Shown: positions 12,758-39,231 of the stretch, piece after piece
Layout: each line of letters opens with the position of its first letter
Numbering within the stretch: position 1 is the first letter of the stretch
IMG/VR virus record: IMGVR_UViG_3300045988_181040
Span: 1-41,069 of that record
Reading direction: 5' to 3' (one strand)
Length of the DNA: 41,069 nucleotides
DNA from: a virus
The notes under the pieces: generated by a model
Seen by the model: only the letters and a program-made list of their open reading frames with translations
Database searches by the model: none
Told to the model about the DNA's origin: nothing
Translations under genes and position numbers: made by a program

Positions 12758-12793
12758 TTGACCTAATAAAACGTTATGGCAGCAGGAGCATTC

Positions 12794-12822
12794 TTGACAA
12801 AAAAGTCAGAGAAAGATATTAT
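12794..12822 (+). promoter_or_regulatory. Promoter-like TTGACA-17-TATTAT in a 550-nt stretch with no convincing gene
   Basis: -35 at 12794-12799 and -10 at 12817-12822. A GNRA-capped hairpin followed by TTTAT lies about 50 nt downstream (12872-12900). Confidence 0.4.
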
Positions 12823-13583: not shown

Positions 13584-13585
13584 AA

Positions 13586-13897: not shown

Positions 13898-13931
13898 TAT
13901 GATATAATAGAGTAAGAAAGGATGTGATCAT

Positions 13932-14153
13932 ATGAGCAATCGTGAAGAAGCGAAACAGATTATTGACAAATTACCAGAATACAAAATTGAGAAAATTCTT
14001 TTATTTTTAAAAGGAGTAGAATTTGATGATGAAATGGAAGACGATGTTTTTTGCGAGAATATGGCGCAGAGGTATCTGAATGATGACAGCCCTGATAAAC
14101 ATGATACTATTACTATAGAGGAGTTTGCAAAGCAAGAAGGTATTGTATTATGA
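13932..14153 (+). CDS. Putative antitoxin of the second TA pair
   Basis: A 73-aa acidic protein. Its end overlaps the downstream RelE-like start by 4 nt (ATGA coupling). Confidence 0.65.
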   Translation: MSNREEAKQIIDKLPEYKIEKILLFLKGVEFDDEMEDDVFCENMAQRYLNDDSPDKHDTITIEEFAKQEGIVL

Positions 14154-14404
14154 GATATCAGATTGTTTTGGAAAAGCCGGCTCAAAAATTTCTGAAGCGT
14201 CTTAATCGGACAGACAAAGAGAGAATCCTTAGAGCAATTTATAAACTTCCTGAAGGTGAAAATATAAAACGTCTGAAAGGTCATCAAGATTTATTGAGGC
14301 TACGGGTAGGTGATTATAGAGTTATCTATACTGTAAATAATGGAAAATTAGTAGTGTGCGTGGTAGATATCGGAAATCGTGGAGATGTCTATAAGAGATA
14401 TTAA
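14150..14404 (+). CDS. RelE/StbE-family mRNA interferase toxin
   Basis: 84 aa. KPAQKFLKRL....RI...I..L......K.LKG....LRLRVGDYRVIY.V.......V..IG.RGDVYK is the canonical RelE/ParE pattern. Confidence 0.85.
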   Translation: MRYQIVLEKPAQKFLKRLNRTDKERILRAIYKLPEGENIKRLKGHQDLLRLRVGDYRVIYTVNNGKLVVCVVDIGNRGDVYKRY

Positions 14405-15828: not shown

Positions 15829-16089
15829 ATGGAATTGAACAGAACAGATTATATCATTTTGAAACTACTAAAGAAAAAGAAATGTACATCCTTTTTTGAA
15901 GGAATGACATTACAGGAAATTATGGATGTAACACAAACGACTCGTCCAACTACATATCGGAAGATGATGAATATGAAAGAAATGGGGTATGTAGAAAAGG
16001 GATGTAAGTCAATTCAGGCAGATACATTTTATCTACTTGATAAAGGAATCAATTTTATAGAAAGAAAAGGAGAGGTAGAGCATGATTAA
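15829..16089 (+). CDS. tubR: Winged-helix DNA-binding protein in the TubR position (centromere-binding adaptor candidate)
   Basis: 86 aa. ILKLLKKKK....GMTLQEIMDVTQTTRPTTYRKMMNMKEMGYVEK is a wHTH motif. Its end overlaps the tubulin-like gene by 8 nt. Confidence 0.65.
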   Translation: MELNRTDYIILKLLKKKKCTSFFEGMTLQEIMDVTQTTRPTTYRKMMNMKEMGYVEKGCKSIQADTFYLLDKGINFIERKGEVEHD

Positions 16090-17155
16090 GAAAGAAGTTG
16101 CAGTGATAGGACTTGGTTTAGCAGGAGAAACAGTTGGGTATGGGTTCCAACAAAGAAATTATCACACGTTGCTGATCAACGGTAGTGAGCAGGACAATCA
16201 GACGATATCTTCTGCGAAGAATGTACTTGTCTTGCGTGGCTATGACGGATTAGCCGGAGATAGAAATCTTGCTTTAGAAGCATTGAAAAATAATATAGAT
16301 ATTGTGAAAAAAATTAAAGAAATTGAACAAAAAATTGTACTTCCGATTGCTTCTGGCGGTGGAACTACAGGTAGTGGAAGTATTACTCATGTTAGTGACA
16401 TTATATGTGCTAATCCGGAAAAGATTGTATGTCCGATTGTACTAATGCCGAGAAAAGATGAATCCATTCAAAAAAGAATTAACGCATATAATACGGTTAA
16501 AGAACTGATGGAAATTGAAGAATTAGGTGCAATGATTCTGGTCAATAATGATGCTCACAAGGATCTGCAGAAGATCAATGAGACGCTTATCAATATGCTT
16601 GATAGATTCTTTACAGACAGTTCTGTATCAAAAGGCTCTAACTTTGATGATTCGGAGAAAATGAGGATGTTAAGAGAACATGGAGTATTTGTGTTGGCAA
16701 TGCTATCTGGAAAAGATAAATCAGTATCAACACAAGATATGATAAATGTTTTGACTGCAAAGAACATCTTTTTACCACTGATGAACGATGGTGTAGTGGG
16801 AAATATCGGTATTATCAATCAAAAGGATAATCACTTAGACGAGCATGAAATCATACAAGCAGTAGGAACACCAGAAAATATTTTTACTGGAAATAACGGA
16901 ACAGCAAATATCGTGTGCCTGTCTGGGTTGTCATTTCCAGTGGATTATATCTCTGAATTAGGAAAATCAGCAGTAGAAGAGCAGCGAGAAAGAATCGGCA
17001 AGCGCAGAACTTTGCAGTTAGAAGAAATCAATATAGGATTGGAAGATTCCAGGAAAACAGCGTCATCACAGAAAACAAGTAAGCGTAGAAAATCAAGTTT
17101 AGATTTGCTGCGAGAATTGGACGATGATGACGATGGTACAGAGATGAACAGTTAA
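16082..17155 (+). CDS. tubZ: Tubulin/FtsZ-superfamily GTPase (TubZ/PhuZ-like)
   Basis: T1 loop VAVIGLGLAGETVG. NGSEQDN matches NT(D/S)xQ(A/D)L. T4 tubulin signature ASGGGTTGSGS. Acidic C-terminal tail LLRELDDDDDGTEMNS. Confidence 0.8.
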   Translation: MIKKEVAVIGLGLAGETVGYGFQQRNYHTLLINGSEQDNQTISSAKNVLVLRGYDGLAGDRNLALEALKNNIDIVKKIKEIEQKIVLPIASGGGTTGSGSITHVSDIICANPEKIVCPIVLMPRKDESIQKRINAYNTVKELMEIEELGAMILVNNDAHKDLQKINETLINMLDRFFTDSSVSKGSNFDDSEKMRMLREHGVFVLAMLSGKDKSVSTQDMINVLTAKNIFLPLMNDGVVGNIGIINQKDNHLDEHEIIQAVGTPENIFTGNNGTANIVCLSGLSFPVDYISELGKSAVEEQRERIGKRRTLQLEEINIGLEDSRKTASSQKTSKRRKSSLDLLRELDDDDDGTEMNS

Positions 17156-21574: not shown

Positions 21575-21695
21575 TAAACCCTTATAAACACTGGGTTTTT
21601 TGCAAAAAACATCCTTTAAAGTCTCCCTATATTATATATATATTAGGGAGAAATGAAAGGATGCGAAATCTCTCTAAACCCTTATAAACACTGGG
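21575..21695. repeat. Direct repeat - AT-loop hairpin - direct repeat module (ori/iteron or recombination-site candidate)
   Basis: taaacccttataaacactggg occurs at 21575-21595 and 21675-21695, exactly 100 bp apart. Hairpin TCTCCCTA (21622-21629) / TAGGGAGA (21644-21651) has a 14-nt pure-AT loop and is centred between them. Confidence 0.7.
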
Positions 21696-23299: not shown

Positions 23300-23766
23300 C
23301 CTGATTCAGTAGTTCACAGCTTGTTAAGTGCTGATTGTTATAACAACGAACCGTGGTTTGTGGGAAAAGATGTGGCAACGGCGTTAGGGTATGCAAATCC
23401 TAAAAACGCAGTCCCTAAACATGTATCAGACGAAGATAAGCTGAGTACCCAAATCGAGTACGCAGGTCAGAGAAGGACGGTAACGGTAATTAATGAATCT
23501 GGTCTTTACGCTTTAATCTTTGGAAGCAAATTGGAATCAGCAAAATGTTTTAAACATTGGGTTACTTCAGAAGTGTTGCCGAAATGGAAACACCTTCTGG
23601 TAAGCAAAATATGACAATCATCAACGAATCTGGTCTTTACGCTTTAGTATTTGGAAGTCGGTTGGAGTGTGCAAAGAAAAAATCAATCAGATATGTTCCC
23701 TCTACAAATAAAGTTAGTAGATTCCAGAACGCGCCAACCTGCCTTCAAAAAAGGTGTATACAGTAG
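23300..23766 (+). pseudogene. BRO-N (antirepressor-type) gene remnants: N-truncated copy plus an out-of-frame partial duplicate
   Basis: EPWFVGKDVATALGYANPKNAVPKHVSDEDK...VINESGLYALIFGSKLESAKCFKHWVTSEVLP is the BRO-N core, but the leading F.F...VR block is missing. A second piece, GKQNMTIINESGLYALVFGSRLECAKK, lies in another frame. The 21-nt gaatctggtctttacgcttta is repeated at 23495 and 23626. Confidence 0.6.
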
Positions 23767-24054
23767 GTCTACAGCCTGTTTTATGGGTGAAATTCAGCCT
23801 GTTACTTATAGTTTATAAAAGTTACACGCAATGTACTAAAAGTAGAATAAGGGGTATCTGAGAGTTGCTTAGGGCATAAATCCAGGGGTAAAAGTGCTGA
23901 ATATGAAAGTCCGATTTCATCTGAAAAAGGTGATAAAAATATGAAAGCACATGGAGAATAATAAAGTGAATCAGAAATGAACCAATGAATTACGAAGGGA
24001 GAGATTATTATAGGTAGTATTTTAAAACAGGCGAAGCGGTGCAGAATATTAAAA

Positions 24055-27000
24055 TTGAATATTTTTAAATGTCTGACAGAAAAAGAAAATCAGTTGAGAA
24101 AAAAATGGAAGAATTGTCATCGTCCAGAGTTGAAGTCTGCTGCCCAGAAAGCATTTATAGAGGAAGTAGAGCGGTATACAGATATCAGAAGTATTTCACG
24201 TGAGAAGATATATGAAGATAAAGAAGCAAAAGAGGAATTACAGATTGCATTATTTGAAAATGATATTGTACGACTGGAAAAGGAAGATTTGTCAGATGTC
24301 CCATTTATAGATAAAGTTGTATTTTTGGAATGTAAAGGGAAAACAGCGAAACCTATTTTGAAACAGATTATCGATCGAGGAATTGATATTGCAGGGAAGC
24401 ATTTTATTTTTTACAGTAGTTCTACGGGGCAATTGAAAGATCAAGAAATCACATTGCTGGATGCAAAATTTTACGAAGATAATAAGAATCGGTTACTGTG
24501 CGGATTGACAGAAGGAATTATCAATGCTCATGGTGGGATCAATATGGGAAAGTTTTTAGCATATAAGTCTTTGAATTTGTCTATGAGCGTACAGACAGAG
24601 TATGCGGTCGATATTGACGAAGTGTTGGTTGTAAAAGATTTTGAGACTCTTGTGACAGGCAAAGTGAATTACTTGGATGCGGATACCTTTAATATAGAAG
24701 AAACAGAGATGGAAGTTCCTGTTCCTCACATGGATGGAGCAGGGATGTTTATGCCGGGGACACTTCCTTGCAGCTGTCAAATCCGTGGTGGATGGATTAA
24801 AGGAGCAATCTTTCCTTTTGATTTCTGTAAGTTTATTGAAAAGCACTCGTGTGAATCATTTGTTTTAGATGCATGGAATCATCCAGTACCCATAGAAACA
24901 GTCAAACGAATGAAAATTATTTTGACACAGAGTCAATTAAAAATGTGGCAGTATTATGAGTCTATGGATGATTACCGAGACAAATTTAAAGCATCTGGCG
25001 CAGCAATTACAATTAACAATTTTGCAGAACCAGTGGGAAAAGAGTATATCCGTTTGAGTTATCAACCTATTCAGACACTTCCACGGGAAACGTTTACGGA
25101 GGAGAGGATGGAGAAACTTTGCCAAAAATCTGTTGACTATATCAATCAGGCAAAAATAGATCCGGATGTTGCACTCAAGATTATGGGTATTGACATGGAA
25201 AGGGAAGATATAAAGTTAGATGGTTTGCAGATGGCAATCAAATTGTATCCGCAATTGTTATCCGATGGGTATGTAAAAAAGAAAGTGCAGGAGTACATCA
25301 AAGCAGAGCGAAAAAGGATGCAAGCTGGCAAGATTTATGTAAAAGGTATCAACGGCTATATTTGTCCGGATTTGTATGCCTTCTGCCAGTGGCTGTTTTG
25401 TGGCGAAGAGAATCCAAAAGGATTGATACCAGAAAATCATGTCTATAGCAAGCATTATAACGAGCAAGAGATATCAGAAGTGTGCTGTATCCGATATCCT
25501 CACTTGTCTGATTGTGAGCATGGTATTAGGTCATTGATTAAATCAGAGGAATGCAAGGAATGGTTCTCTGGTGATGATATAGTCGTAAGTACGCATGATC
25601 TGCTGACAAAAACACTACAGGCGGATGTGGATGGAGATCATATGTTTGTTATTTCTGATTCTGCATTTTTAGATTGTCTGGGCGAACAGAAAGCACCTTT
25701 GTATTACCAGATGGGTTCTGCGCCTAAATCTCAGATTACAAGGACAGAAGAGTATCAATGTTTGGAGCGCAGCTTTGACAATGAAAATATAGGGAATGTG
25801 TCGAATGCAATTACAAAGATTTTCAATGAAGAAAATCCTGATATCAAATTGATTAGGATTTTATGTGCATATAACAATTATGTGATTGATTTCCCCAAGA
25901 CACAATTGTCTTTGGATTTAAAAGGATATGCGCCGATTTATAATAAGTATAAAGAGCAGGAAATGCTCCCACCATATTTTTTCCAGTATGCCAAAGATAG
26001 AAGAAGCGATCTGTGCTGTGAGTTTCATTCCTATCACAATGTAGATCGGATAGCAGTATATATAAAAAAGAAGACAAGAAATGGAATTACCAAGATTTCA
26101 TGTCTGGACGATATAAACGGTTTTAATCCTGAGACTCTAAAAGATAGAAGTATCACGGTCAAGAGGAATTCTAAAGAATATAAGAAGATGAGAACACTTC
26201 TGCCGAAACTGAAAATGAGAGTATCCTATTATCTAAAGGGGTTAATATCAGAATATAACCAGACATATAATGACAAGATACTTGCGAAAGAATTGATCTA
26301 TATTTTTTGTCTAAAGCAATTTGATAAAATGATTCCGGATCGAAAAGTGGCAGCATCCTATTTGGTGGATATGGAATATTATCAGCCAGAATTTAGAGAA
26401 GATTGTAACAAGGATATCCTTTGGGAGTGCTATGGGGATATTTTAGTTCAAAATGTGGAACTGAACGTGAAACAAAATATAGAACTGCCTTTAAAACGAA
26501 AGGCATACCAGACAAGCCAAGAAAAGACAGAAGAGATTGCACAAAGAATTGAGCAGATCAAGAAGAAGCAGGAAGATTTAATGGAAGTACCGATTGCGAA
26601 AAGTGTTTATGATTCCATATTTAGTATGGAATGTAAAAAGAACTGTCCGAAAGATCGAGAGTTGTTGTATATTTTATATGTTTTGTATCAGAGATACGTC
26701 GCGAAAAGCGAGAAAGAAGTGGATTGTCTTTTGCTGGCAAGTGGCAAAAATAGCAAAGGAATCAAAAGGATAACCATTGATGAATGGATTGGCAGCAAGA
26801 TTACAGATAAAGGATTAAAGAGGTTGGAAAAGGCTGGATACATCAAACAAGAGAAGCTGAGAAAATATATTAAAATTTCTTTTTATTTACCAGATCCAGA
26901 TAAGACTAAACTCTTCTATGCAAAGGAACAAAATCCATTGATTGATCTGTATCAATATAATGGTGAGCGCAGTGTCAAAATCTGTGAAGTGTGTGGAAGG

Positions 27001-27090
27001 AGATTTTTTGCAGAAAGAAATCGGAAAACGTGTAGTGATAAATGTAGTGAGTTGTTGCGTAAAAGAAATGGCAAAAGAGAACAGGTGTAA
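24055..27090 (+). CDS. YonO-like / eukaryote-type-RdRP-like single-subunit two-barrel (DPBB) polymerase with a C-terminal Zn ribbon
   Basis: CCIRYPHLSDCEHGIRSLI...DDIVVST...LQADVDGDHMFVISD parallels RdRP NPCLHPGD..DLDGDxYFVxWD and beta-prime NADFDGDQMAV. Upstream blocks GKHFIFYSSSTGQLKD, HMDGAGMF and CQIRGGWIKGAIFPFD are also present. The C-terminus has CEVCGRRF..CSDKC. TTG 24055 has no RBS; the true start may be ATT/ATA at 24004-24010, after GGGAG (23997-24001). Confidence 0.75.
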   Translation: MNIFKCLTEKENQLRKKWKNCHRPELKSAAQKAFIEEVERYTDIRSISREKIYEDKEAKEELQIALFENDIVRLEKEDLSDVPFIDKVVFLECKGKTAKPILKQIIDRGIDIAGKHFIFYSSSTGQLKDQEITLLDAKFYEDNKNRLLCGLTEGIINAHGGINMGKFLAYKSLNLSMSVQTEYAVDIDEVLVVKDFETLVTGKVNYLDADTFNIEETEMEVPVPHMDGAGMFMPGTLPCSCQIRGGWIKGAIFPFDFCKFIEKHSCESFVLDAWNHPVPIETVKRMKIILTQSQLKMWQYYESMDDYRDKFKASGAAITINNFAEPVGKEYIRLSYQPIQTLPRETFTEERMEKLCQKSVDYINQAKIDPDVALKIMGIDMEREDIKLDGLQMAIKLYPQLLSDGYVKKKVQEYIKAERKRMQAGKIYVKGINGYICPDLYAFCQWLFCGEENPKGLIPENHVYSKHYNEQEISEVCCIRYPHLSDCEHGIRSLIKSEECKEWFSGDDIVVSTHDLLTKTLQADVDGDHMFVISDSAFLDCLGEQKAPLYYQMGSAPKSQITRTEEYQCLERSFDNENIGNVSNAITKIFNEENPDIKLIRILCAYNNYVIDFPKTQLSLDLKGYAPIYNKYKEQEMLPPYFFQYAKDRRSDLCCEFHSYHNVDRIAVYIKKKTRNGITKISCLDDINGFNPETLKDRSITVKRNSKEYKKMRTLLPKLKMRVSYYLKGLISEYNQTYNDKILAKELIYIFCLKQFDKMIPDRKVAASYLVDMEYYQPEFREDCNKDILWECYGDILVQNVELNVKQNIELPLKRKAYQTSQEKTEEIAQRIEQIKKKQEDLMEVPIAKSVYDSIFSMECKKNCPKDRELLYILYVLYQRYVAKSEKEVDCLLLASGKNSKGIKRITIDEWIGSKITDKGLKRLEKAGYIKQEKLRKYIKISFYLPDPDKTKLFYAKEQNPLIDLYQYNGERSVKICEVCGRRFFAERNRKTCSDKCSELLRKRNGKREQV

Positions 27091-27163
27091 CTTACTGAGC
27101 TAGAAAAGTGGTGGATGTCAGTTATATTACAAATAGAACATATGGAGTTTTGAAAAATTTTAT

Positions 27164-27209
27164 GGGTGCAGAGTATCCTTTATTTTATGGGGGTTCTGCA
27201 CCCGTTTTC
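27164..27209 (+). terminator. Intrinsic terminator after the polymerase gene
   Basis: gggtgcaga (27164-27172) pairs with tctgcaccc (27195-27203), followed by gttttc. Confidence 0.65.
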
Positions 27210-27295
27210 AAAAAAGCGAGGATATCTATAGGGAGAAAAACATCATAATTTTATGATATATTTATCCAAGAAAAGAGAAGTAGGAGGACATAAAA

Positions 27296-27532
27296 ATGGA
27301 CATCAGAGAAGTGGTAAAAATGTATTTGTCTGTGAATGGAATTACAATCACGCATTTTTCCAAGTGTATTGGTAGGAATTATGCGGTTGTGAATAAATGG
27401 TTGAATGGGAATCCGGAAATTAAAATGAAGGAAGATACCATGAAAAGGATTTATGCGTTCCTGAGTGGAAAGTACTATCTGACAGTCGATGAAGCAATTG
27501 AGACAGGGGGTGATGAGAAAACGTGCAAGTAA
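27296..27532 (+). CDS. Small HTH-like protein
   Basis: 78 aa. GITITHFSKCIGRNYAVVNKWLNG is HTH-like. Strong RBS taggagga. Confidence 0.65.
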   Translation: MDIREVVKMYLSVNGITITHFSKCIGRNYAVVNKWLNGNPEIKMKEDTMKRIYAFLSGKYYLTVDEAIETGGDEKTCK

Positions 27533-27730: not shown

Positions 27731-28126
27731 TTGGAACAAAACAATTTTGATAAATATGTAATGTGTCTGGAACAAATGACACAAGAGAAAAAAGAGGTAT
27801 GTGAAAAAACTGTTCAGGCAATTTATGATAAATGGACAGGCTATTTTGCAGGTAATGACTCTGGACAGCAGAGATTAGAAAACATAGAGGCGTTATTGGA
27901 ACAAACAAGGATCCGTATTTTTGATGAAAATGATATGCCAAAAACAGGAGAGCAATTGCTTGAGGAAATGACAGATACATGGGACGAGATGACAACAATG
28001 GAACGCACTATATTAGGGATTGTCTTTGCTGGAACAGGGATAGGAGATGCAAAGAAGTTTCATTTGCTGATGAGAAATTATAAATTATTCAAACAGGAGG
28101 AAATGTTAAATGGTAAATGTAAATGA
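27731..28126 (+). CDS. Hypothetical protein (first gene of the tail-proximal block)
   Basis: TTG start 6 nt after aaggag. 131 aa. Confidence 0.6.
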   Translation: MEQNNFDKYVMCLEQMTQEKKEVCEKTVQAIYDKWTGYFAGNDSGQQRLENIEALLEQTRIRIFDENDMPKTGEQLLEEMTDTWDEMTTMERTILGIVFAGTGIGDAKKFHLLMRNYKLFKQEEMLNGKCK

Positions 28127-28679
28127 GTTAAAAATTGGGGAATTTTATAAATTCATCATAGAGGAAGTAGTGGACGAAGAGAAAAAAATAGTGGATGTCA
28201 TGGAAATAGTAGGATATTATACAGGGCAAGTTATTATCGAGGATAAACAGATTTTGATTGTAAACATACCAAAAACAATAGTTGACAGTGTTGCATATTT
28301 AGATACAAGTAAAGTTGCTAAAGCATATCAATATTCCATATCTGGAGATAATGTCATGGAATACAAAATCAATGATAATAGATTGGAAAAGTTAGGATTT
28401 GGATGCAATGTAGATGTAAAAGAAATCCAGGGATATATTGTAGACTATTGGGAAAAGTTAGATGATGCGTCCAGATCATTTTTGTTAGATGAAGTACTAT
28501 ATGTGCAAAATACAAATGGCTTAAAAACATTAGTTAGTCACATGATGGACAGTCAAAAGGTTATTGATAAATTAGCGGAAGAAAAAAGAGAGGCAGAGAA
28601 GAAAAATGTTGCAGAAGCAATTGGCGCACTATTTGGGATGGCACTTGTTGGAAGCGCATTAAGTAAGATCGAGAAATAG
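28110..28679 (+). CDS. Hypothetical protein with a C-terminal hydrophobic segment
   Basis: RBS aggagg 9 nt upstream. AIGALFGMALVGSALS lies at the C-terminus. Confidence 0.65.
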   Translation: MVNVNELKIGEFYKFIIEEVVDEEKKIVDVMEIVGYYTGQVIIEDKQILIVNIPKTIVDSVAYLDTSKVAKAYQYSISGDNVMEYKINDNRLEKLGFGCNVDVKEIQGYIVDYWEKLDDASRSFLLDEVLYVQNTNGLKTLVSHMMDSQKVIDKLAEEKREAEKKNVAEAIGALFGMALVGSALSKIEK

Positions 28680-28681
28680 AT

Positions 28682-29071
28682 ATGGCGACATTTCGTAGTT
28701 TTTCAGATTTGGAACAGCAGCTAATCAAGGATGTCAGGTTGGCTGCTGAGTCTGCCAGAAATGAAATAGATAAGGAATTGCAGGATAATGTTATGGACTA
28801 TTATGGTTTTGGAAATCCAGTGAAATATGAAAGAACAGGCACATTATTAGAATCCCCTAATACCACTCCTGTCTCTGGGGGTGGAAATCATTTTACATTT
28901 GAGTCTTATCTGGATGAAAATATTTCATATCATACAGGAACATTTTCTGGAGCGGAAGTAATTGACGCAACAGAGCAAGGACATTCAGGAACACTCGGTA
29001 AACACGGATATTTTAAGAGGACGGAAGAAGCTGTTCCTAAAATTTTGGAAAAAATATTTAGTCAATTATAA
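28682..29071 (+). CDS. Hypothetical protein immediately upstream of the tape measure gene
   Basis: 129 aa, translationally coupled to its neighbours. No family recognised. Confidence 0.6.
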   Translation: MATFRSFSDLEQQLIKDVRLAAESARNEIDKELQDNVMDYYGFGNPVKYERTGTLLESPNTTPVSGGGNHFTFESYLDENISYHTGTFSGAEVIDATEQGHSGTLGKHGYFKRTEEAVPKILEKIFSQL

Positions 29072-29080: not shown

Positions 29081-32000
29081 ATGTCGGATCATAAAATAAA
29101 AGTTGATGTAGAGTTGGACACGTCCAAAGCAAAAAAGCAATTGGATGATTTGACCAAGCAGAAACAAAAAGTGAAAATTGATGTGGATGCGTCAAAATTA
29201 AAAGCAGCATCCAAAGAAATTGAGGATATTGGGAAAAATAATAACCAGAAAATCAAGTTGGATGTCAATACGTCAGAATTGGATACTGCTGTAAAAAAGA
29301 TTAACAATCTAAAGCAGAGTAAAATCAATATCAATGCAAATGTAGAGGGTACAAATTCTGTAGATAATATGGCAAAAAGCTATGATACAGCAAAGAAAAG
29401 CGCGCAGGGATTAGGAACATCTATAAAAGAATTGGCAAAGTTAGGGTTGTCATTCCAGACGATCGAACAATCTGCAAGAGCAGCTGTAGAAGCAATTTCG
29501 GACATTGATAATGCTATTTTGGATTTGCAGATGGCTACAGGAGATAGTTATTCTGAAGTCAGAAATATGGTCAGTGGATATAATGACATGGCAAAATCTC
29601 TTGGGGCGATTACAACAGAGGTTACATCCGGCGCTGATACATGGTTGAGAAGTGGTAAGTCACTGGCAGAGACAAATATGTTGATTAAAGATACCATGGT
29701 ACTCAGTAAAAATGCCAAGATGTCTTCTGAGGATAGTTCTAAAGTGCTGACCGCAACTTTAAATGGATTCCAGTTGGCAGCAGATCAGGCAAGTCACGTA
29801 AATGATATTTTATCGAGCATTGATTTGGAATCTTCATCGGATGCGGAAGGCATCGGTACAGCATTAACCAAAACAGCATCTATGGCACATAATGCTGGAT
29901 TATCGCTGGAAAAGACTGCTGCCTCAATTGCCACGATTAAAGAAGTTACGCAGGATTCTGATGAATCAATTGGTAATGCGCTGAAATCCATGTTATCACG
30001 CATGAATCAGATTAAAGCTGGTAAGTTTATTGATGCGGAGACGGGAGAAGCCTTAAATGATACGGAAAAGGTGTTAAAAGCAGTTGGCATCAATATGAGA
30101 GATGTAAATGGTCAATTTCTGGATGCAGAAACCATAATTGATAATGTTGGGAAGAAGTGGTTAATGTTTGATAAAAACACGCAAAAAGCGATTGCCACTG
30201 CGATGGGTGGAACCTATCAATATAACAAATTGATTTCTTTATTTGATAATTATGATAAAGTACTCTCTTTGACAGGAACAGCACAGAATTCCAGCGGAAT
30301 GGCAATGAAGAAGTTTAATGATGCATACTTAAATTCCCTGGAGGCAAAAAAGAAGAGTCTGCAGGCATCATTTGAGTCTTTATCCATGAATTTGATTAGT
30401 AAAGAATCTATTTCTGGAATCTTGGAAGCATCGCAGTCAGTGGTAGAGTTTCTGGATAAAACAAGCCTGTTAAAGACTGCGTTGACTGGCTTGGCAGTTG
30501 GTGGTGCAATCAAAGGCTTCACAATGTTGACAACATCTATTACGCAAGCAGCTATGAAAATGCAAAATTTCAGCAACGCAATGAGTTTATTGAAAACAGG
30601 TAATATCGGTACAGATGGTGTAAAACAGTTGACCACCTTGGTAGATGGATTATCTAAAAGTCAATTAAAGGCAGTGCTGTCTTCACAAAATTTAACCAAT
30701 GCTCAAAGAATGCAAATCTTACAGAGTACCGGACTGAGCGAAGCACAAGCTGCTGCAAAATTATCTACTATGGGATTGGCTACGGCAGAAGGAGCAGCAA
30801 CAGCAACAACGGTCACATTTAGTGGTGCATTAAAGGGACTCTGGGCAACGTTGATGGCAAATCCGATTGTCTTGATTACCACAGCATTAACAGCAGGTAT
30901 TTCTATCTGGAATGCATATCAGCAGTCTGTAGAAGAAACCATTCAGACAGCCAAAGATGCATCGAATGCATGGAAAGAATCTACATCCAGTCTGGATGAA
31001 CAAATCTCCAAATATAAAGAATTAAAAGCAAAATTAGCTTCTGGTGATTTAACTGAATCGGAAGAGTATAGCGTTAAGCAACAAATCTTAGAAATTCAAA
31101 ATCAGATTACTTCTCAATATCCAGAACAGGCAGCAGGAGTGGATCTGGTCAATGGAAACCTTCAGACACAGCTTGGTTTGTTACAGCAGATTGCAGTTGA
31201 AAATGCAAAGTCTACATTGAATGAAAACAGAAAAGAATTTCAAGATGTAGAAAAGGCAATGACGAAGAAGAGACACTATAGTCTTGGTGATACAGGTGTT
31301 ACGAATGAAATCGAAGGTGTGGGGAAAGACATCTATGATATCGCAAAGGAATTTGAAAAGCAGGGAATTACTTTACAGGATACAGGGATGAACACCGGGA
31401 TATTTACAATCTCATTTGATGGGGATGCATCCAAAGCGGATAAAGTTATCAATGACTTTATGAATCGTGTATCTGCATTACAGTCGGAATATGAAGAACA
31501 GGATTTTGCGACAGGGAAAATAGAATCTGTTCTGAATTACTCAAGTAAAGCATTAAGTGCAAATAAGAAGGTTTTGGACGATTATCAAGAGAGTTATCAG
31601 ACATTCTTGCAGATGGATATGGTAGCAAATGAAAAGATGTTTTCTGTAGATTACGATAAATCCAAGAAATCTTACGGTCAATTATATGAAGATTATGCAG
31701 ATGCAGTAGAGAAATATAATGAAGCGTTATCAAGTGGGGATACCTCTAAAATTGAAGAAGCAAAGACATCATTTGAAGGAGTGCAAAAGGCAGTTGATTC
31801 CGTTGTTGGAAGTGATAATAAGTACACTTCAGTTTTTGAAGGTGTGACAGATCAACTGGCGAAAGCATCCATTGCAGCAAATGAATTTAAGAAAGTTTTG
31901 GGAAAAGACGGAACGGATGAAGTGCCTAAAGGCTTTGAATCTTCTGCAAAAACTTATGCAAATAACATCAAACGTCTTGGACTTAGTGATCTGGACTTCC

Positions 32001-35000
32001 AGATTGCATTAGACACAGAAGGTTCACAAAAAGGTGAAGTTGCTATCCAGGCATTGACACAGGCTGCTTTGGATATGGGGTTGATTGCCGGGACATCTTC
32101 GGAAGAAGTACAACCTTTGTTGGATGTACTGGTGGAATTAGGAGTTATTTCTACACAAACCGGAGACAATGTAGAAGAATCTGCAAAATCATTTGAAGAG
32201 TTAGCAAATTCCACACAGACAACGTTGAAGACGATTTCAGCAGTATCGGAAGCGTTGGAGGGACAGTCTACAGGAAAATCCATTGATGTGGAAACATTTA
32301 ATTCAGAAGAATTAAGAGAATATCAATCTGCATTAGAATATGTAAATGGTACAATGCGTTTAAATGAAGAACGGGTAGCAGAAATTACACAGGCAAAAGC
32401 AGAAGAAGCGGTTGCAACGAACAATGCAAACAAAGCACAGAAGCAATCAGAGTATTTGAAAAATGCCGGGGAAATTGAACAGCTAAGAGAAAAGCTGAAA
32501 TCTTTAAATGAGGGAACAGATGCTTATACTCAAACAAAATCAGAATTGGATTCTTTAATGTCTGCAAATTCTGCAATTGCAGCAGAGTGTCAACAGTATG
32601 ATTTGCTTACATCTGCAATCAAAGAGGCAACAGGTGCGTATCAAAACTGGCTGGATAAACAAGATACAACAGAATCTGGAGATATGTTTGATGCTTCTTT
32701 GGATGCAATGCAGGCGATTTCAGATGTAGCGGATCCGAATTCTGAAGATTATGGAAGAGTTGGAACAAAAAGATATGAGGCAGCAGTAGATTTCATTGTG
32801 CCAGAATCTATTAACCATGAAGATGAACAGGCTGTTCAAAATTATATGAATAGCATCGGTGAATATTTTAACTATGACGAAAATGGTCAGAGAGTTGGAA
32901 TGGATGTTGCTCAATTTTGTAGCAATGCTGTTAATGCTGGTCTGATGAATGTAGAAACAGATGTCAACGGGAAAGAAATCTTTAATCTTGCCGATGGAAT
33001 TAAGATGGAAGACTTTGAAGAAAAGTTGAATCTCTCAAAATCTATGGTACAGGCAATGTTTGGAGAAATGGAAGAGTTTGGCGGTAAGTTTGACTGGGCG
33101 GATGAAGCAGTACAAACAGTTGGAGATTTAGGTGTGAAAGCCTATGAATCAGCAAATGCATTACAAAGTTTGAAAGAAAATGAAAATCTGGATATTAAAA
33201 TGGATGTATCTGGAATTGAAGATATAGAGGGCAAGATTACAACACTGGATAGCACAATTGCCCAAATGAATGAGATAAAAGCACGTCCGGATGTTGATGC
33301 TTCTTCCATTGAGAATGCGAATAATATTATTCAGTATTGTATCGCGCAGAAGCAGCAGTTGACCAACCCTGTGATTATGAATGTAGACACGTCACAAGTA
33401 GAAGGAGAGATAGCGAATGTTCTTGCAAAATTGCAGGAATTTCAAAATGCGAAAAATGAATTGGATATGCAAGCATCTGTTGGTGCTGACACATCAGAAG
33501 CCCAGGCAAAAGTAAATTCTCTTGCTTCTGAAATTCAAGCAATGCAACCTACAATTCAGGCAAAGGTTAGTGGTAGTTTTGACGCATCATCTATTGAAAG
33601 CATCGTGTCTAGTATTAGTGCAATTACACCAGAGATGTTGGTGAAATGTGGAGTGAATGATACTGCAATTCAAAATTACACACCAGAGAACAAAGATGCA
33701 ACAGTTACATATCATCTAAATTCTACAGCAGTAGATAATTATAATCCGTCTAATTTGCAGAGAACAGTAACTTATAATGTTATAACGAATGGTTCTGCGC
33801 CCAAAGTAAATGGAACTGCTCATGTAGAAGGAACAGCGCAAGTACATCGTAGGATTCATAAAGCTCTTGCAAATGGAGAGTGGGGAGTTCAGAATGATGA
33901 AGTTGCTTTAACTGGAGAGATTGGTCGTGAGCTAGTTGTCTCCGGGAACAGGTGGTGGACAGTTGGTGATAGAGGGGCTGAATTTGCTCATATTCCAAAG
34001 AATGCAATTGTTTTTAATCATAAACAAACGGAAGAAATCTTTAAAAATGGATATGTAACCTCTAATGGTGGAAGAGGGAAAGCCTATGCATCTGGTACAG
34101 CATATGTGACAGGAAGTATTGGTGTCAATAATGCGAACAAAAATGTAGCAGGTTTATCCAACACTACTTCCAACAATCTCAACTCCGCATCAAATAATCT
34201 TGCCAAAGCTGCTTCTGATACTTCTAAAGCAGCATCAGACACATCAGAAGCTGCCGAGAAATTATCAGAAGCAGTATCCGGATACACGGACTGGGCTGAG
34301 GTGTTATTCAAACGCTTAGAATCACAGTATGATTTGCTGATGAGTCAAATGGAGCGTATCGCACATCTCCCAGACAAGCAACAGAAACTGTATGAGGCAA
34401 TGTCTAAGAACAGTGAACTACTGAATAGGACTCAGCAAGCAATTGGGACTTATCAAAGTCATTTTGATTCTATTGTGCGACAGAGTGGAATAAACCCACT
34501 TATCGTCCATCAGATTCAGAACGGTTCTCTGGATATCTCAAAATATGACCAGGATACTCAAAAAATAATCAGCGAGTTGCAGTCTTATTATGATAAGCTC
34601 GTAGATTGTAATAAACAGTACGATGACCTCTTAAATAAACAGAGTGAACTGGCGCAGACAGCATTGGATAATATTGAAGATTACATCGATATGATGACTG
34701 GAATTGAGTCCTCTGCTGTAGATTATCAGGAGGCATTACGTGAGTTAGCAGCTGCAAAAGGAGAATCTGCATATTCCGATAATATGTATGGCTCTCTGCA
34801 AGAATCTATTAAAAATCAACAGGACGTTGCCGGTAAATTACAGTCACAGATTAAATCATATCAAGATGAAATCAATAAACTCATGGCAAATGGGTATATG
34901 GCTGAATACTCAACGGAATGGTTTGAAGCTCAAGCTGCATTAAACGGATTCAGACAAGAAGCTGCTGAAGCTGAGAAAACACTGATTGAATTACAAGATC

Positions 35001-35829
35001 AGTTAAGAGAACTTGATTTACTGAAACTGCAACAGGTTATTGATGAGTTAGACAGAACTGCAAAACGACTGGAAAACAATTCTGACCTTACAGAATCAAA
35101 AGGTGAACAGGTATCTGAAAAAGATTTACAGGCACAGCTTGACAATGCAAATGCACAGATTCAGGCAAATTACGATAAGCGGAATGAACTATTAAAGGAT
35201 CAGGCAAAATATGATGTCGGTTCTGACAAATATAATGAATATGCAGAAGAGATAGAAAAGCTCGATGACGCTATCTTTGATGCAATGGAGAACATTGAAG
35301 ACCTCAAAAATAAAATCTGGGAAGTAAGATGGCAACCGTTCTTTGATGGACAGGAAGCATTAGGTGATCTGATTGACCAGACAGATGATTTAAGAGGACT
35401 TTTAAATAGTGATGCTTTTCTTGGGAAAAATGGTGGATTAACACTTGATGGTATTGCAAATATTGCTCTGATTAGTCAGGGTATGAATGCTGCGAAACAA
35501 CAGATTTCTAATTACAGAAAAGCTCTTGAGAAATTACAACAGGACTTAGACAACGGCAATATTTCCACACAAGAATTTGAAGAGTCTTCAAAGAAGTTTA
35601 TGGATGAGATTGCTTCAAGTACCTCAAAAATCGAATCTTATAAAGACGAGATCGTTTCTCTTTACACTAATATGTTAGAGAAGGAAAACGAAGTAGTCCA
35701 AACTAGCATTAAAAATCAAAAGGATTTGTTAAGCTCTAAAAAAGAGAATGATGACTACGACAGAAATGTAAGAAAGAAAACTAAAAATATCAATTCTATC
35801 CAGGCACAGATTGCAGCTTTGGAAGGGGT
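29081..35829 (+). CDS. Tail tape measure protein, exon 1 (TP901-family core); joins 37818..39231 after intron removal
   Basis: RBS taaggaggg. The TP901-type TMP core runs ILDLQMATGDSY...GADTWLRSGK...SKVLTATLNGF...IGTALTKTASMAHNAGLSLE...IGNALKSMLSRM. TM-like segments and long coiled coils are present. The apparent stop at 35834 lies inside the intron. Confidence 0.85.
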
Positions 35830-37817
35830 TTGGTAAAGCCCTATCTATTTTAATTGCTGGAAAACCGTAAAGCCATATAAACTACAACGCAAGGATGAAA
35901 TAAACCTAAACGTGAATGTTTGAGAATTATATGGATGTTTATGCTAGATGTAATCTTCTAGGTTATAAATGTAAAAATTGGCAATCAGCAGCGAAGCTCC
36001 GAATAGGAGAACGTTCAACGATCAGTGGGTGATGAGTGTAACCCATGTAAGACCACAAGCGATTGGTGGTACGAAACAAATAGACTATTTTAATTAAGCA
36101 AATTTTAGATATATGTATTTTATTAATCACGTTGAAACATACGTGATTTTTTGTTGCGAAAATTTACAAAAAACAAAATTAAAAAAGTGAATAACAGATT
36201 GGAGGTGTCAAATGTTAGTAGAAAATCAATTAGTTGAAGTAAAGTGGTACAGTTCTAATAAAAATTGGTATGAATCAAAGGGATATAAGTTTACAAAGAA
36301 TGGAGACAGTTTTTTAGTTAACGCAGATGAATTAGTATTGTCATCAAAACAAAAAGTTTTTGTAGTTTGTGATATATGTGGAAAAGAAACAAATATGAAT
36401 TATTCTTCTTACATTAATTCTATAAAGAATAATGGAGAATATCATTGTAGAGAATGTTCGAAGGAGATAGGTGCTCAAAAATTAATAGATAAAAACAAGA
36501 AAAAGTATTTTAATTTATTTCTTAATTGGTGTAAGAAAAATAATTATACACCAATCTCTACTATTGACGATTACATAAACTCTTTAAGCGATTTATATTT
36601 TATGTGTAATATACATGGAAAAGGTAAGATAAGTTGTTCAAGAATACAAGGGGGTCAAAAGTCTGGCGGGTGCTGTAAAGGACATACTTTAAGCAATGTC
36701 AAAAGAGAAGATATTGGTTTTGTAAAAGATACTGTAGAAAGTAAAAATAATAATATATTGCTTAATGCAAATGAGTATATAAATGCTCGTAAAAAAAATT
36801 TAAGAATAATATGTGGGTCATGTAACAAGGAATTTGTAGCAAGCTTTGCGTCTATTATTTCAGGCAATGGTATGTGTTTTGATTGTGGAAGGGATATTCA
36901 TAATTGGTCTTCTTATGATTCTATAATTGATAATCGATATAAGAAATATTATGATAGATGTAACGAATTAGGATACTACCCATTAATGACAAAAGACGAC
37001 TTTGGATCAATGAATGCAAAAGGGTATATTCAATTTTTGTGTCCAAATCACGGAGAGGTGAGTCAACTATATAACAATTTTGTTAACGGAGGTTCTATGT
37101 GTAAACATTGCTCTGACGATTTTAGGGCATCAAAATTAAAATATGACTCTGAGTCCATTCTAAGCATAATTGAAAGTAAAAACAAAAATAAATTGGTAGA
37201 TATAAATGAATATAAAAACTCAATTACACCAATCAGTATACAGTGCGGATCTTGCGGGAAAATTTTCAAACAATCACTCTCTAATTACCAAAGAGCAAAT
37301 GTAACTGGAAAATGTCAGGATTGTAATGAAATAAGTATTTCTGAGTATATAATTTCTACAATATTAGATAAATACAATATATCTTATATAAGACAATACA
37401 AATTTGATGATTGTCGAGATAAATTGCCGTTGCCTTTTGATTTTTATCTACATGAATATAATTTATGCATAGAATTTGATGGTCTTCAACACTATAAGCC
37501 AATATGGGGTGAAAATCAATTTTTGACAACAAAGTTACATGACGCCATGAAAGATAATTATTGTCGTTGGAATAATATAAATATGTTAAGAATACCATAT
37601 TGGGAAGATAAAAATTTAGAAACCATTTTAAAAAAACATTTAAGAATAGAAAAAGATGAAATAAATACTGAACGTAATGCGAAACAATTAAAGATAAAAT
37701 ACATACCAAATAGAAAAATAGCTTAATTATATAGAAGATATGATCTCATCTCATATGAAAGTATGAGGAGAGTTACTACTCTCTCACTTATGTAGCGAAT
37801 AAGTGAAAAGATAATTG
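35830..37817 (+). mobile_element. Group I self-splicing intron (IA-like) interrupting the tape measure gene
   Basis: P1 pairs exon GGGGU (35825-35829) with GCCCU (35838-35842), with a U-G wobble at the splice site. aattgctggaaaaccgtaaagcc, aatcagcagcgaagctcc and gttcaacgatcag resemble the P, Q and R core elements. P6 is CTCC/GGAG. There are three 3'-terminal hairpins, then G37817. Splicing restores the frame: ...ALEG-V-NNEAAKAELKRLKAEL... Confidence 0.75.
36212..37726 (+). CDS. Intron-encoded putative homing endonuclease: repeated Zn-ribbon modules plus a C-terminal Vsr/DUF559-like PD-(D/E)XK nuclease domain
   Basis: RBS ttggaggtg. Five CxxC...CxxC-type modules. C-terminal LPLPFDFYLHEYNLCIEFDGLQHY....D..KDNYC...NINMLRIPYWE matches the D...E-x-D-G-x-x-H...D..R...L..G...LR pattern. 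Confidence 0.7.
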   Translation: MLVENQLVEVKWYSSNKNWYESKGYKFTKNGDSFLVNADELVLSSKQKVFVVCDICGKETNMNYSSYINSIKNNGEYHCRECSKEIGAQKLIDKNKKKYFNLFLNWCKKNNYTPISTIDDYINSLSDLYFMCNIHGKGKISCSRIQGGQKSGGCCKGHTLSNVKREDIGFVKDTVESKNNNILLNANEYINARKKNLRIICGSCNKEFVASFASIISGNGMCFDCGRDIHNWSSYDSIIDNRYKKYYDRCNELGYYPLMTKDDFGSMNAKGYIQFLCPNHGEVSQLYNNFVNGGSMCKHCSDDFRASKLKYDSESILSIIESKNKNKLVDINEYKNSITPISIQCGSCGKIFKQSLSNYQRANVTGKCQDCNEISISEYIISTILDKYNISYIRQYKFDDCRDKLPLPFDFYLHEYNLCIEFDGLQHYKPIWGENQFLTTKLHDAMKDNYCRWNNINMLRIPYWEDKNLETILKKHLRIEKDEINTERNAKQLKIKYIPNRKIA

Positions 37818-39231
37818 AAATAACGAAGCAGCAAAAGCTGAATTAAAACGTTTAAAAGCTGAATTGGCAGATGCACAGGATGAATATTCTCAGTTACGTA
37901 AGGATCATGAATATGATGTGCGTCAAAATGGATATGAAGGTTTGAGCGATGATCTAAATGAGCAACTTAATGATACTTTAGAAGAGATTAAGACAAATTC
38001 TGCTAAACAAGAAGAAGTCATATCCAATATGCTTGGAAAAATTGTCGGCATGTATGATAAGGCTTATGACAAAATTCAGCAAATCATCAACAGTACAGGA
38101 TTTGTACCGAATAAGGATTTATCCAATAATCTTGGAAATCTTGGTACAAGTAATGGAGCGCAGAACCAGGTAGACAACAGTATGACTACTGCTCCTAATT
38201 ATAGACCTGATGATTGGACGGACGTGAATACCGGTCAGATTCAGAACGGAACAACACAGGATAAGAATGATCAGATTCAAGGTGATATCAGCAAGAATCC
38301 AGACTTATCCAATAGACCTGTTGCAGAAATTACATTAAGTCCGGGGACACTTTCTATACAGGAAGGTTCTACAGGCACAGTTTCAGCGACAATTAGACCA
38401 AATGATGCAAAGAATAAGAGCTTGCAGTGGGTGTCATCAAATCCAGATGTTGCTACGGTTGCAAATGGAACTGTTCATGCTGTCAAAGCAGGTAGCACTA
38501 CTATTAGTGCAATTGCAACAGATGGTGGAGGTGCTACTTCAACAAATAGTTGTGCAGTAACTGTTACACCAAAACCAGAACCGCCAAAACCAACTACACC
38601 ACCTCAGAATAATAATGGCGGAGGAGATGGAGTACCGAATGTTGGAGATAAAGTAGTATTCGCAAGCGGAGATTACTACTACTCTTCTGACGGTCAGTCC
38701 CCTGCTGGAAATGAAATGCGTGGTCAGGAAGTATATATTACCAGTGTAAATAATGCGAATTGGGCACAGAGGAAATATCATATTAGTAGAACACCTCGTT
38801 TCGGAGAGCGTGACCTTGGTTGGGTAAGTCTTGACCAGTTAAGAGGTTATGCGTCTGGAACAAAGAAATTTGTAAATGGTTCAGAAATTGTTCGTATCAA
38901 TGAAGGAAATAATCCTGAAATGATGGTTAGGCGTGGTGCATTGACAGGAACAGCGACGACGATTACTTATGGTGATGCTGTTGTAAATGCAAGACTGTCA
39001 AAGAACATTATGGATCTTGGTGAACACAAAGATGATATTTATAGTTCACTGAACATTGCTAACAGCCTTGGTGAAAGACCTAATGTAACAAACAATTACT
39101 ATGACAAGATGATAGAAGTTCAAGGAAGTATTGACAAGGAAACCTATCCAGGCATGAAGAAGGTAATTGAAGGAGTCACAAAGGAATTTACCAAAGAAGC
39201 TCATAAACTTGGAATGCATCGGACACTTTAA
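37818..39231 (+). CDS. Tail tape measure protein, exon 2 (coiled coil, Big_2 Ig-like domain, Pro/Thr linker, SH3b-like domain)
   Basis: The frame is open from 37819, with no RBS or ATG (the track uses TTG 37864). The coiled coil continues from exon 1. The Big_2 motif is ITLSPGTLSIQEGSTGTVSATIRPNDAKNKSLQWVSSNPDVATVANGTVHAVKAGSTTI. Confidence 0.8.

Follow-up and report, generated by a model that had tools for sequence, protein, structure and literature searches.

A YonO-family polymerase gene and the conserved box that follows it in a 41-kb element

What would a small element with a giant tape-measure-like gene and no recognizable head genes do with an RNA polymerase (RNAP) of its own? The question is raised by the stretch of viral DNA considered here, all 41,069 nt of IMG/VR record IMGVR_UViG_3300045988_181040 (hereafter the window), in which a long open frame on the plus strand (23989..27090) ends shortly before the genes that lead to a tape-measure-like protein. 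The original prediction took the product of this frame to be a single-subunit polymerase of the kind found in Bacillus phage SPbeta (YonO) and among the RNA-dependent RNA polymerases (RdRPs) of eukaryotes, and it offered two roles, a private transcriptase for the tape-measure operon or a primase-like enzyme. The assignment to this kind of polymerase is well supported by a Pfam match, by alignment with YonO, by fold comparison, and by the conservation of the catalytic aspartates. As to the role, we consider it likely that the protein is a YonO-type DNA-dependent RNAP, made by the host, that starts transcription at a conserved box just past its own gene and drives the operon running from a small helix-turn-helix (HTH) gene to the tape-measure gene.

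Identity and integrity of the polymerase

By sequence and predicted fold, the protein is a single-chain polymerase of the YonO family, with its active site predicted to lie between two double-psi beta-barrels. Its kin are the cellular RdRPs of eukaryotes and, at a greater distance, the beta/beta-prime core of the cellular RNA polymerases. Residues 101–644 match the Pfam RdRP family PF05183 (E = 2.2e-16; the score is 60.1 bits, the gathering threshold 23.8), and the protein also matches PHROG 8308, whose function is unknown (E = 2e-147); no NCBIfam model matches it. In a BLASTP alignment with YonO of SPbeta, the identity is 34% across 716 positions (E = 8e-104, residues 101–806 of the window protein), and the alignment sets DVDGD opposite DNDGD, HMDGAG opposite HTDGCG, and QIRGGWIKG opposite MVRLPWVKG. 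When 50,697 phage records were searched by tblastn, 38 matched. SPbeta-like Bacillus phages head the list, and in them the matched gene is yonO (34% identity, E about 1e-93); 25 of the matches are SPbeta-like phages, and the remainder are phages of Psychrobacillus, Clostridium botulinum, Enterocloster, and Thomasclavelia.

An AlphaFold2 model built with 25 homologues (pLDDT 83.9, pTM 0.73) points the same way. The best solved structures found for it with Foldseek are RDR2 of maize and Arabidopsis and QDE-1 of Neurospora and Thielavia (E = 5e-16 to 3e-13, TM 0.42–0.50). The model aligns with the single-chain QDE-1 and RDR2 over 830–940 columns, which argues that both barrels lie in one polypeptide. 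Next in rank are two small two-barrel RNAPs, from Thermus phages P74-26 and P32 (E about 2e-6), and in a library of viral predicted structures the best matches are gut-phage proteins labeled "RNA dependent RNA polymerase" (E = 8e-30). Fold comparison alone found the polymerases of the Protein Data Bank (PDB), as sequence searches of that collection with the single protein and with a 25-sequence profile returned no polymerase and no RNAP subunit. The original prediction had named the Pfam profile, YonO, and a structural comparison as checks, and all three agree with it (E about 1e-15 for RDR2 and QDE-1 in the last); a match to an unrelated family, which would have spoken against it, did not turn up. 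The likeness to the beta-prime subunit of multisubunit RNAPs stays at the level of a motif, with neither a Pfam RNA_pol_Rpb1 or RpoC match nor a PDB match to an RNAP subunit, and on these results the protein does not classify as a beta-prime subunit.

The peptides quoted in the original prediction for a 1011-residue product were each found in the translation at the expected place: GKHFIFYSSSTGQLKD at 24394–24441, CCIRYPHLSDCEHGIRSLI at 25483–25539, and LQADVDGDHMFVISD at 25615–25659, all on the plus strand. Two-barrel polymerases are defined by an aspartate triad with R..P in one barrel and by an aspartate with basic residues in the other (Ruprich-Robert and Thuriaux, PMC2919709; Iyer et al., PMC7824862). 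On the assignments in these papers, the first (beta-like) barrel is represented at 24727..24804 (+) by HMDGAG (residues 225–230, 24727–24744) and QIRGGWIKG (residues 242–250, 24778–24804). The second (beta-prime-like) barrel is represented at 25489..25638 (+) by IRYPHL (residues 479–484) and the metal-binding DVDGD (residues 524–528). Conservation was scored in an alignment of 25 homologues with 42–94% identity to the window protein, drawn from a database search that had returned 368. In the first barrel His225, Met226, Asp227, Gly228, Ala229, Gly230, Gln242, Arg244, Gly245, Gly246, Lys249, and Gly250 are invariant, as are Asp524, Asp526, Gly527, Asp528, Arg480, Pro482, His483, and Leu484 in the second, so the quoted motifs are not chance strings. 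The C4 zinc ribbon that had been read at the C terminus, CEVCG...(10)...CSDKC (26983..27045, +), is likewise present, with Cys977, Cys980, and Cys993 invariant and Cys997 at least 90% conserved. With the motif residues invariant and the same aspartate triad essential for catalysis in YonO (PMC5467207), we regard the encoded enzyme, on sequence grounds, as catalytically intact.

What template such an enzyme would use bears on its role. The Pfam match and the best PDB folds, RDR2 and QDE-1, could be taken to mean that the protein copies or amplifies RNA, for example in regulation or defense, and QDE-1 itself copies both DNA and RNA templates according to what PMC9508822 says of its activity. YonO, on the other side, was found to be processive and strictly DNA-dependent; it transcribes the late operon of SPbeta and strongly prefers DNA templates (Forrest et al. 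2017, PMC5467207). The window protein is far closer to YonO, at 34% identity, than to the eukaryotic RdRPs, at 12–15% in structural alignments, and Pfam and PHROG scans of the window show no Dicer- or Argonaute-type partner. An RNA-copying role thus seems quite improbable to us, and a DNA template is the one that we would expect.

The start of the gene appears to lie upstream of the TTG from which the residues are counted here. The single ORF listed here, 24055..27090 (+), gives 1011 residues when counted from a TTG and ends with the stop codon at 27088–27090; because an in-frame TGA occupies 23986–23988, the position 23989 given in the original prediction marks the beginning of the open frame and not a start codon. 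In the alignment, an N-terminal motif, (K/R)xRR(C/Y)x(I/M)(Y/F)(K/N)L(N/S), is kept in all relatives upstream of the position of TTG 24055. The window copy, KRCRILKLN, is in frame (RCRILKLN is encoded by 24034–24057), and no ATG, GTG, or TTG lies between the upstream stop and this motif. A strong Shine-Dalgarno sequence, AAGGGAG (23995–24001), is followed by GAG ATT ATT ATA, of which ATT ATT ATA spans 24004–24012. Because the conserved motif precedes TTG 24055 and no canonical codon stands in front of it, the true start is probably a noncanonical ATT or ATA at 24004–24012, which would hold translation of the polymerase low. A relative with 48% identity has GTG ATT ATT ATA at the equivalent place, a group at 34% has GGTGG, 6 nt, and ATT ATA without a canonical start, and two relatives at 41–42% have ATA exactly at the codon where a third has ATG. 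The presence of GTG, ATG, or ATA at the equivalent codon in related lineages suggests, from sequence comparison, a recurrent use of ATA/ATT starts.

The lack of a canonical start codon before the conserved N terminus could instead be a sign of decay. Read together with the missing head genes and with a neighboring Bro-N gene that is duplicated and fragmented, it might mark the polymerase as a nonfunctional remnant in a defective prophage-like element. A remnant would not be expected to keep an intact frame of about 1,030 codons with all catalytic residues invariant. Hundreds of near-identical copies are found in metagenomes, and the cluster of the window polymerase at 90% identity has 576 members; the named ones are helicase fragments wrongly clustered with the polymerase. 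The same noncanonical start layout also recurs in several diverged lineages, one of which has ATG at the equivalent codon. Of all the explanations considered here, a decayed relic strikes us as the least credible.

The protein's C-terminal portion sets it apart from YonO. The alignment with YonO stops at residue 806; YonO passes directly into a C4 ribbon, CCICG...CQSCG, and ends, whereas the window protein has some 165 extra residues before its own ribbon. This insert (residues ~807–976, 26473..26982, +) was modeled as part of residues 806–1011 (pLDDT 86), and the elements seen in the model are a long helix and a small alpha/beta unit, a helix-helix-hairpin of the winged-helix type (residues ~905–943), the ribbon, and a terminal helix. 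Its fold matches are weak (best E = 0.05), and all are winged-helix DNA binders (CodY, Fur/PerR, ArsR/CadC, MarR, and ribosomal eS10/eS25), and a profile weakly matches the winged helix of ribosomal S25. Pfam finds nothing significant in the C-terminal 206 or the N-terminal 120 residues. We do not claim a likeness to TFE, as a TFIIE-alpha chain was matched with only E = 0.25 and prob 0.13. From its fold class we propose that the insert could bind DNA. When 1.84 billion representative proteins were searched with a profile, 1,393 relatives passed E <= 0.001 and 522 passed E <= 1e-30. Of the top 150, only about 20 clusters extend through the C-terminal part and most are YonO-length, ~820–1000 residues; the insert defines a Lachnospiraceae subfamily.

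The intergenic box and the operon behind it

The 205-nt gap 3' of the polymerase gene holds three conserved parts: a short motif, a hairpin, and the box. The motif, CAAATAGAACATATGGAGTTTTGA (27130..27153, +; consensus ATAGAAyAAtTaGGAGtTTTGA), lies just upstream of the hairpin, and an nhmmer profile of it finds one copy per related locus, at the same position. The hairpin has two tiers and a short T run (27162..27210, +) and is read from folding as the intrinsic terminator of the polymerase gene. At 27162–27205 it folds with −24.1 kcal/mol (z −5.6, with none of 200 shuffles as good), in agreement with the terminator foreseen in the original prediction, although the T run, at four T, is weak. 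A comparable hairpin of different sequence is present in five of the six related loci that were folded, with a T run after four of them. The sequences were folded singly; RNAalifold on a 19-sequence alignment of the intergenic region gave no pairs, with the 3' arms out of register.

The third part, the box AAAAGCGAGGATATCTATAGGGAGAAAAA (27212..27240, +), has the core TATAGGGAGA at 27227–27236 and the consensus AAAgyGnnGATwTagTATAGGGAGAg. It is a candidate promoter for the element's own polymerase and, taken as GATATCTATAGGGAGA, contains the candidate start region GGGAGA. Its core, TA(T/G)AGGGAG(A/G), is present in nearly every relative, about 90–145 nt past the polymerase stop, and its position is the same in relatives of 33–97% polymerase identity. 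In the loci examined the box follows the hairpin, mostly with a T run, and stands 60–110 nt before the next gene's own ribosome-binding site. With a profile built from 12 copies, each locus yields a single match, as does a locus outside the training set, and this box is the sole match in the window. Two groups of relatives, at 34% and 37%, carry AAATTATATAGGGAGAAGAA and GTCAATATTnTAGTAGGGAGAGG at this position. A related box also stands 70–145 nt past the stop in YonO-length relatives: GATAATCGTCATAAGGGAGACAG in SPbeta, GAACGGTCTTTAAGGGAGACG in Cohnella, TCTGTATATGGAGAAGGGAAA in Clostridium perfringens, and GATAATAGTCTTTAAGGGAGAAC and GATAATGGTCTCTTAGGGAAGG in others. Within 250 nt past the stop, AGGGA[AG] occurs in 33 of 51 distinct loci compared with 11% of random windows, a figure that is not a probability, the loci being related. 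The longer string TATAGGGAG occurs twice in the window against 0.06 expected. The box contains no sigma-A-like −35/−10 hexamers. A ribosome-binding site for a small ORF was considered and rejected as its function, as the box is not trailed by a conserved start codon or ORF in the relatives.

In the SPbeta locus L001 (part of NC_001884, whose numbering differs), GATAATCGTCATAAGGGAGACAG lies at 11260–11282, which corresponds to about 61222–61244 on the minus strand of NC_001884; it immediately follows the terminator of yonO and precedes yonN. A single start of YonO transcription was mapped by Forrest et al.; it lies upstream of yonK and of an RNA that is not annotated, and they did not define the promoter (PMC5467207). 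Their primer-extension primers map to 11932–11955 and 12148–12174 and so bracket 11956–12147, an interval that holds GATAATAGTCAT, the 5' half of the SPbeta box, at 12050–12061. This partial copy could tie the box to the YonO start site, but it is also one arm of a long hairpin, and the link is suggestive only.

The first gene past the box is a small Cro/C1-type HTH gene (27296..27532, +), which has a weak match to Pfam HTH_26 and is a transcriptional regulator by PHROG. Three small ORFs that are conserved in close relatives follow on the plus strand (27731–28126, 28110–28679, and 28682–29071), the last with a weak "virion structural protein" match, and then the giant tape-measure-like gene (29081..39231, +). 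The placement of the polymerase directly upstream of a tail block in the original prediction is therefore approximately right, with the HTH gene and these three ORFs intervening before 29081. Conservation of the gene order was judged by tblastn of all window proteins against 57 loci with 10 kb of flank on either side. Most full-length relatives, whether in Lachnospiraceae genomes or on IMG/VR contigs and over a span of 97% to 33% polymerase identity, retain the order of polymerase, small HTH gene, small ORFs where present, and giant tape-measure gene; TubR/TubZ genes often lie upstream of the polymerase and an integrase gene often after the tape-measure gene.

A scheme that joins these observations would run as follows. 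The host polymerase would make the enzyme from a transcription unit of its own, possibly from the weak site GTTACA-16-TAGAAT (23821..23848, +), a sigma-70-like candidate with 9 of 12 matches in a consensus scan, although such sites in the region are as many as chance predicts. That unit would end at the hairpin at 27162–27210. The enzyme would then start transcription at the box near 27227 (TATAGGGAGA), which may be the promoter of this YonO-type enzyme, and would drive the HTH gene, the three small genes, and the tape-measure-like gene, with the long helix and winged-helix insert helping to bind DNA or to recognize the promoter. Such a mechanism mirrors that of SPbeta, whose late cluster is a single unit of transcription for YonO. 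The private transcriptase of the original prediction fits the conserved synteny, and the tape-measure operon would be its presumed target.

Several points weigh against this scheme. The preference for DNA is extrapolated from YonO, a relative of 34% identity. The Pfam family bears the name "RNA dependent RNA polymerase", and it is RdRPs that the model resembles most among solved structures. Neither Pfam nor the fold search gives a significant match for the C-terminal domain, and the proposed "late operon" is one without capsid genes. In SPbeta the mapped start is 0.8–1.0 kb downstream of yonO (within 11956–12147) and not at the adjacent box; the GATAATAGTCAT copy there is also one arm of a long hairpin or inverted repeat (12050–12125), and the pattern was derived post hoc. 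The loci with the box are not phylogenetically independent, so that the enrichment of 33 in 51 overstates its significance. Finally, the box could serve as an operator for the adjacent HTH protein, as a leader or ribosome-binding-like element (the polymerase's own Shine-Dalgarno sequence is AAGGGAG), or as a promoter for a host sigma factor.

The other copies of the box sequence in the window raise a different possibility. A 54-nt palindrome at 21610..21663, to which no strand is assigned, lies between the helicase gene and the next ORF, and each of its arms carries TAGGGAGA around an AT-only center; the arms supply the second copy of TATAGGGAG and the third of TAGGGAGA. Identical 21-nt direct repeats, 100 nt apart, flank it at 21575–21595 and 21675–21695, and the 100-nt repeat unit is duplicated in a relative (L002). 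The palindrome may serve as an origin or a centromere, or its arms may be divergent promoters of the box type. The single-subunit RNAPs of T7 and of mitochondria make replication primers from promoters that lie at origins, and the AT-rich palindrome with its divergent arms and repeats beside a helicase gene has an origin-like layout. The polymerase could accordingly make primer or activator transcripts at an origin, instead of or besides mRNA. In line with the original prediction, library scans recognize no primase or Rep protein in the window. That prediction's primase-like alternative nevertheless has weak, circumstantial backing, and we think it unlikely. YonO is the processive transcriptase of a late operon, and what is most consistently linked to the polymerase is the downstream HTH–tape-measure operon, whereas the palindrome is found only in close relatives. 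The enrichment of TAGGGAGA by itself is mild (3 copies in the window against 1.08 expected), and relatives carry DnaD-like or helicase genes able to supply replication functions.

The element, its host, and its relatives

Bases 1–35 of the window are repeated at 41035–41069, and this 35-nt terminal overlap indicates that the window represents a circle of 41,034 bp. A tyrosine integrase gene (238–1146) is followed by about 6 kb of genes for predicted membrane or surface proteins (1988–7704), including Ig-like and Big_2 domains, a YbjQ-like domain, and zinc-ribbon membrane proteins, which look like cargo for the host cell surface and not like virion parts. Next come genes for an ArdC-like antirestriction protein (8593–9435, minus strand) and for a ParB/HNH protein with two toxin-antitoxin-like pairs read from their translations (13311–14404). 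A TubR-like winged-helix gene and a TubZ-type tubulin GTPase gene (15829–17155; Pfam Tubulin and TubZ_C_3) make up a type III partition system, of which Bacillus virulence plasmids and Clostridium phage c-st have comparable examples, and in many relatives the pair is kept upstream of the polymerase. The segment 19508–21094 encodes a YkyB-like protein and an SF2 helicase. Just upstream of the polymerase (23321–23766), a Bro-N domain ORF (23321–23614) is followed by an overlapping 69-residue ORF that repeats its C-terminal part, as a 56-nt direct repeat at 23489 and 23620 with 80% identity; the pair is a tandem partial duplication or a decayed antirepressor-like gene. Past the tape-measure gene lie a gene for an HU/IHF-like DNA-binding protein (39361–39753, Pfam Bac_DNA_binding) and one for an HNH endonuclease.

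The tape-measure-like gene has two exons, 29081–35829 and 37818–39231, which when joined encode 2,720 residues with PhageMin_Tail and Big_2 domains and a match to PHROG 4211 (E = 2e-59). They are split by a 1,988-nt insert (35830–37817), and its removal restores a frame that matches an uninterrupted homologue of 2,714 residues in L002. The insert carries an ORF for a 504-residue zinc-finger/HNH-type homing endonuclease (36212–37726). The last base of the 5' exon is T (35829) and that of the insert is G (37817), a pattern shared with group I introns; Rfam gives no match in the window at gathering scores and no group I intron model in 35700–37950 at E <= 1.

Searches of nearly all ORFs of at least 100 residues with PHROGs and Pfam find no capsid, portal, terminase, or tail-tube gene. 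A complete phage with unrecognized head genes was rejected, as no unassigned ORF is big enough for, or matches, a portal or large terminase. The description of the element as a plasmid-phage hybrid therefore holds for its plasmid half, with maintenance genes on a circle, and overstates its phage half, of which the tape-measure gene is the sole clear virion-type gene. The element could be a satellite or another non-autonomous element.

That the polymerase gene and a giant tape-measure gene stay near each other in relatives brings up a further reading, in which the polymerase is packaged with the tape-measure protein and transcribes early genes in the next cell. Thermus phage P23-45 offers a precedent, as its tape measure carries a fused two-barrel RNAP (PMC10770324; bioRxiv 10.1101/2022.12.01.518664). 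Here the two genes are separated by a terminator, the box, and four other ORFs; the polymerase gene sits among replication- and partition-type genes; there is no capsid in the element to package the enzyme; and relatives of the Tn916 type keep the polymerase and HTH genes with no tape-measure gene within 10 kb. A virion-associated enzyme is accordingly a shade less plausible to us than an RNA-copying one. All four alternatives rank well below host-directed synthesis of a YonO-type transcriptase that acts from the box.

The host is a gut Lachnospiraceae, probably Mediterraneibacter ([Ruminococcus]) gnavus, as judged from two sequence comparisons: the SF2 helicase is 99% identical to WP_272114519.1 of that species, and the full-length polymerase relatives in reference genomes are all from Lachnospiraceae (Blautia, Dorea, Faecalimonas, Sporofaciens, and Robinsoniella). 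The scan of reference genomes gave no match with the single protein as query and succeeded with a profile. Close relatives (85–97% identity) lie on metagenomic and IMG/VR contigs of 36–39 kb, with one at the end of a 212-kb contig, and further relatives are found inside large chromosomal contigs, including the 5.4-Mb chromosome of Sporofaciens; the elements thus appear to exist both integrated and free. Head genes are not seen in the visible flanks of four distant members, and the head-less layout recurs down to 33% polymerase identity, in many cases on 38–46 kb contigs listed as viral by IMG/VR. A lineage at 48% identity (L007/L008, human-gut contigs, 384–14127) is arranged differently. It is a Tn916-type element with Xis and Int genes adjoining plsX-acpP-rnc-smc, in which a gene for an 806-residue protein with HATPase_c and a TopoVI-A/Spo11 Toprim domain precedes the polymerase, HTH and radical-SAM genes follow, and no tape-measure gene lies within 10 kb.

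The original prediction tied this clade to the 134-kb phage SPbeta. The family assignment stands, but the family is not confined to large phages, as it is also present on many contigs of about 40 kb and on C. perfringens phage-plasmids of 35–39 kb. The latter are circular and carry a YonO-length homologue (33–36% identity) annotated as "hypothetical protein"; the databases thus already contain YonO-like genes on small replicons, though not annotated as such.

These observations allow a broader, speculative proposal, which we hold as possible but doubtful. The polymerase, the fused winged-helix/zinc-ribbon module, and the box of about 25 bp could form a self-contained, sigma-independent unit conserved from SPbeta to gut Lachnospiraceae elements, and the box would be the YonO-family promoter that was left undefined in 2017. 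Here the unit would be carried by a head-less TubZ/integrase element of about 40 kb that acts as a satellite, expressing its own tape-measure protein and possibly switching on, or being switched on by, the late genes of a helper phage with the same promoter type.

The polymerase belongs to an already known family. Work from 2003 and 2010 had already pointed out YonO-like proteins in prophages of Firmicutes and in some 50 bacterial genomes, and YonO was characterized in 2017 (PMC5467207); homologues in the protein database already bear a precomputed PF05183 label. Our literature search found no description of the winged-helix Lachnospiraceae subfamily, of a family-wide box past the polymerase gene, of the noncanonical start, or of head-less TubZ-integrase-tape-measure elements that carry the polymerase. 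YonO is the sole biochemically studied prokaryotic member of the RdRP-like branch of two-barrel polymerases, and it serves as a model of the ancestor from which all cellular RNA polymerases derive. Its mode of promoter recognition and its possible need for other factors were left open (PMC5467207), and the same search found no later answer. The family is common in mobile elements of human-gut Lachnospiraceae (1,393 representative clusters family-wide at the threshold given above), and the box makes the promoter question directly testable, both in SPbeta, for which genetics exist, and in the gut elements. If confirmed as a promoter, the box would provide a compact orthogonal polymerase-promoter pair for Firmicutes and would aid the annotation of late-gene regulation in many gut prophages and plasmids.

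Comparison with known polymerase systems

The proposed system combines features of several that are known. In its logic it resembles the T7-type RNAPs, where a host-made polymerase then reads a short conserved promoter for later genes, but those enzymes have a right-hand, Pol I-like fold and not double-psi barrels. The box core TATAGGGAGA equals positions −4 to +6 of the T7 class III promoter, a resemblance that is probably coincidental. The eukaryotic RdRPs QDE-1 and RDR2 (PF05183) share the two-barrel fold and the order of motifs with the window protein; they differ in their low sequence identity to it (12–15%) and in acting on RNA, or on both templates in the case of QDE-1, in silencing. 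The RNAPs of Thermus phages P23-45 and P74-26 (gp64/gp62, with the tape-measure-fused virion RNAP) are likewise phage-borne, minimal two-barrel enzymes with a tie to a giant tape-measure protein. They are far more distant, however, and are fused to the tape measure or separate with promoters of their own, whereas here polymerase and tape measure belong to separate transcription units.

The C. perfringens phage-plasmids (e.g. NZ_CP092482.1) come close in format, as circles of about 38 kb in which the polymerase gene lies beside a DEAD/DEAH helicase gene and which also carry partition and toxin-antitoxin genes. They have a full virion set (capsid, protease, portal, terminase, and tail), ParM in place of TubZ, and DnaD, and their polymerase is YonO-length (900 residues) and lacks the winged-helix insert.

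With SPbeta YonO the correspondence extends from the protein to the arrangement of its gene. Both enzymes are single polypeptides with the DxDGD triad, the HxDGxG and basic-residue motifs, and a C-terminal C4 ribbon, and in both cases the gene is followed by a hairpin, a related ..TAAGGGAGA box, and a gene for a small DNA-binding protein. An HU-like gene is also common to both, as yonN directly after yonO in SPbeta and after the tape-measure gene in the window. The window protein differs in its ~165-residue insert before the ribbon, in its N-terminal 100 residues, and in a gene that probably starts with ATT or ATA, and its DNA-dependent activity is expected by homology with YonO. The carriers differ as well: one is the complete 134-kb Bacillus phage SPbeta and the other a 41-kb TubZ/integrase circle of gut Lachnospiraceae without head genes.

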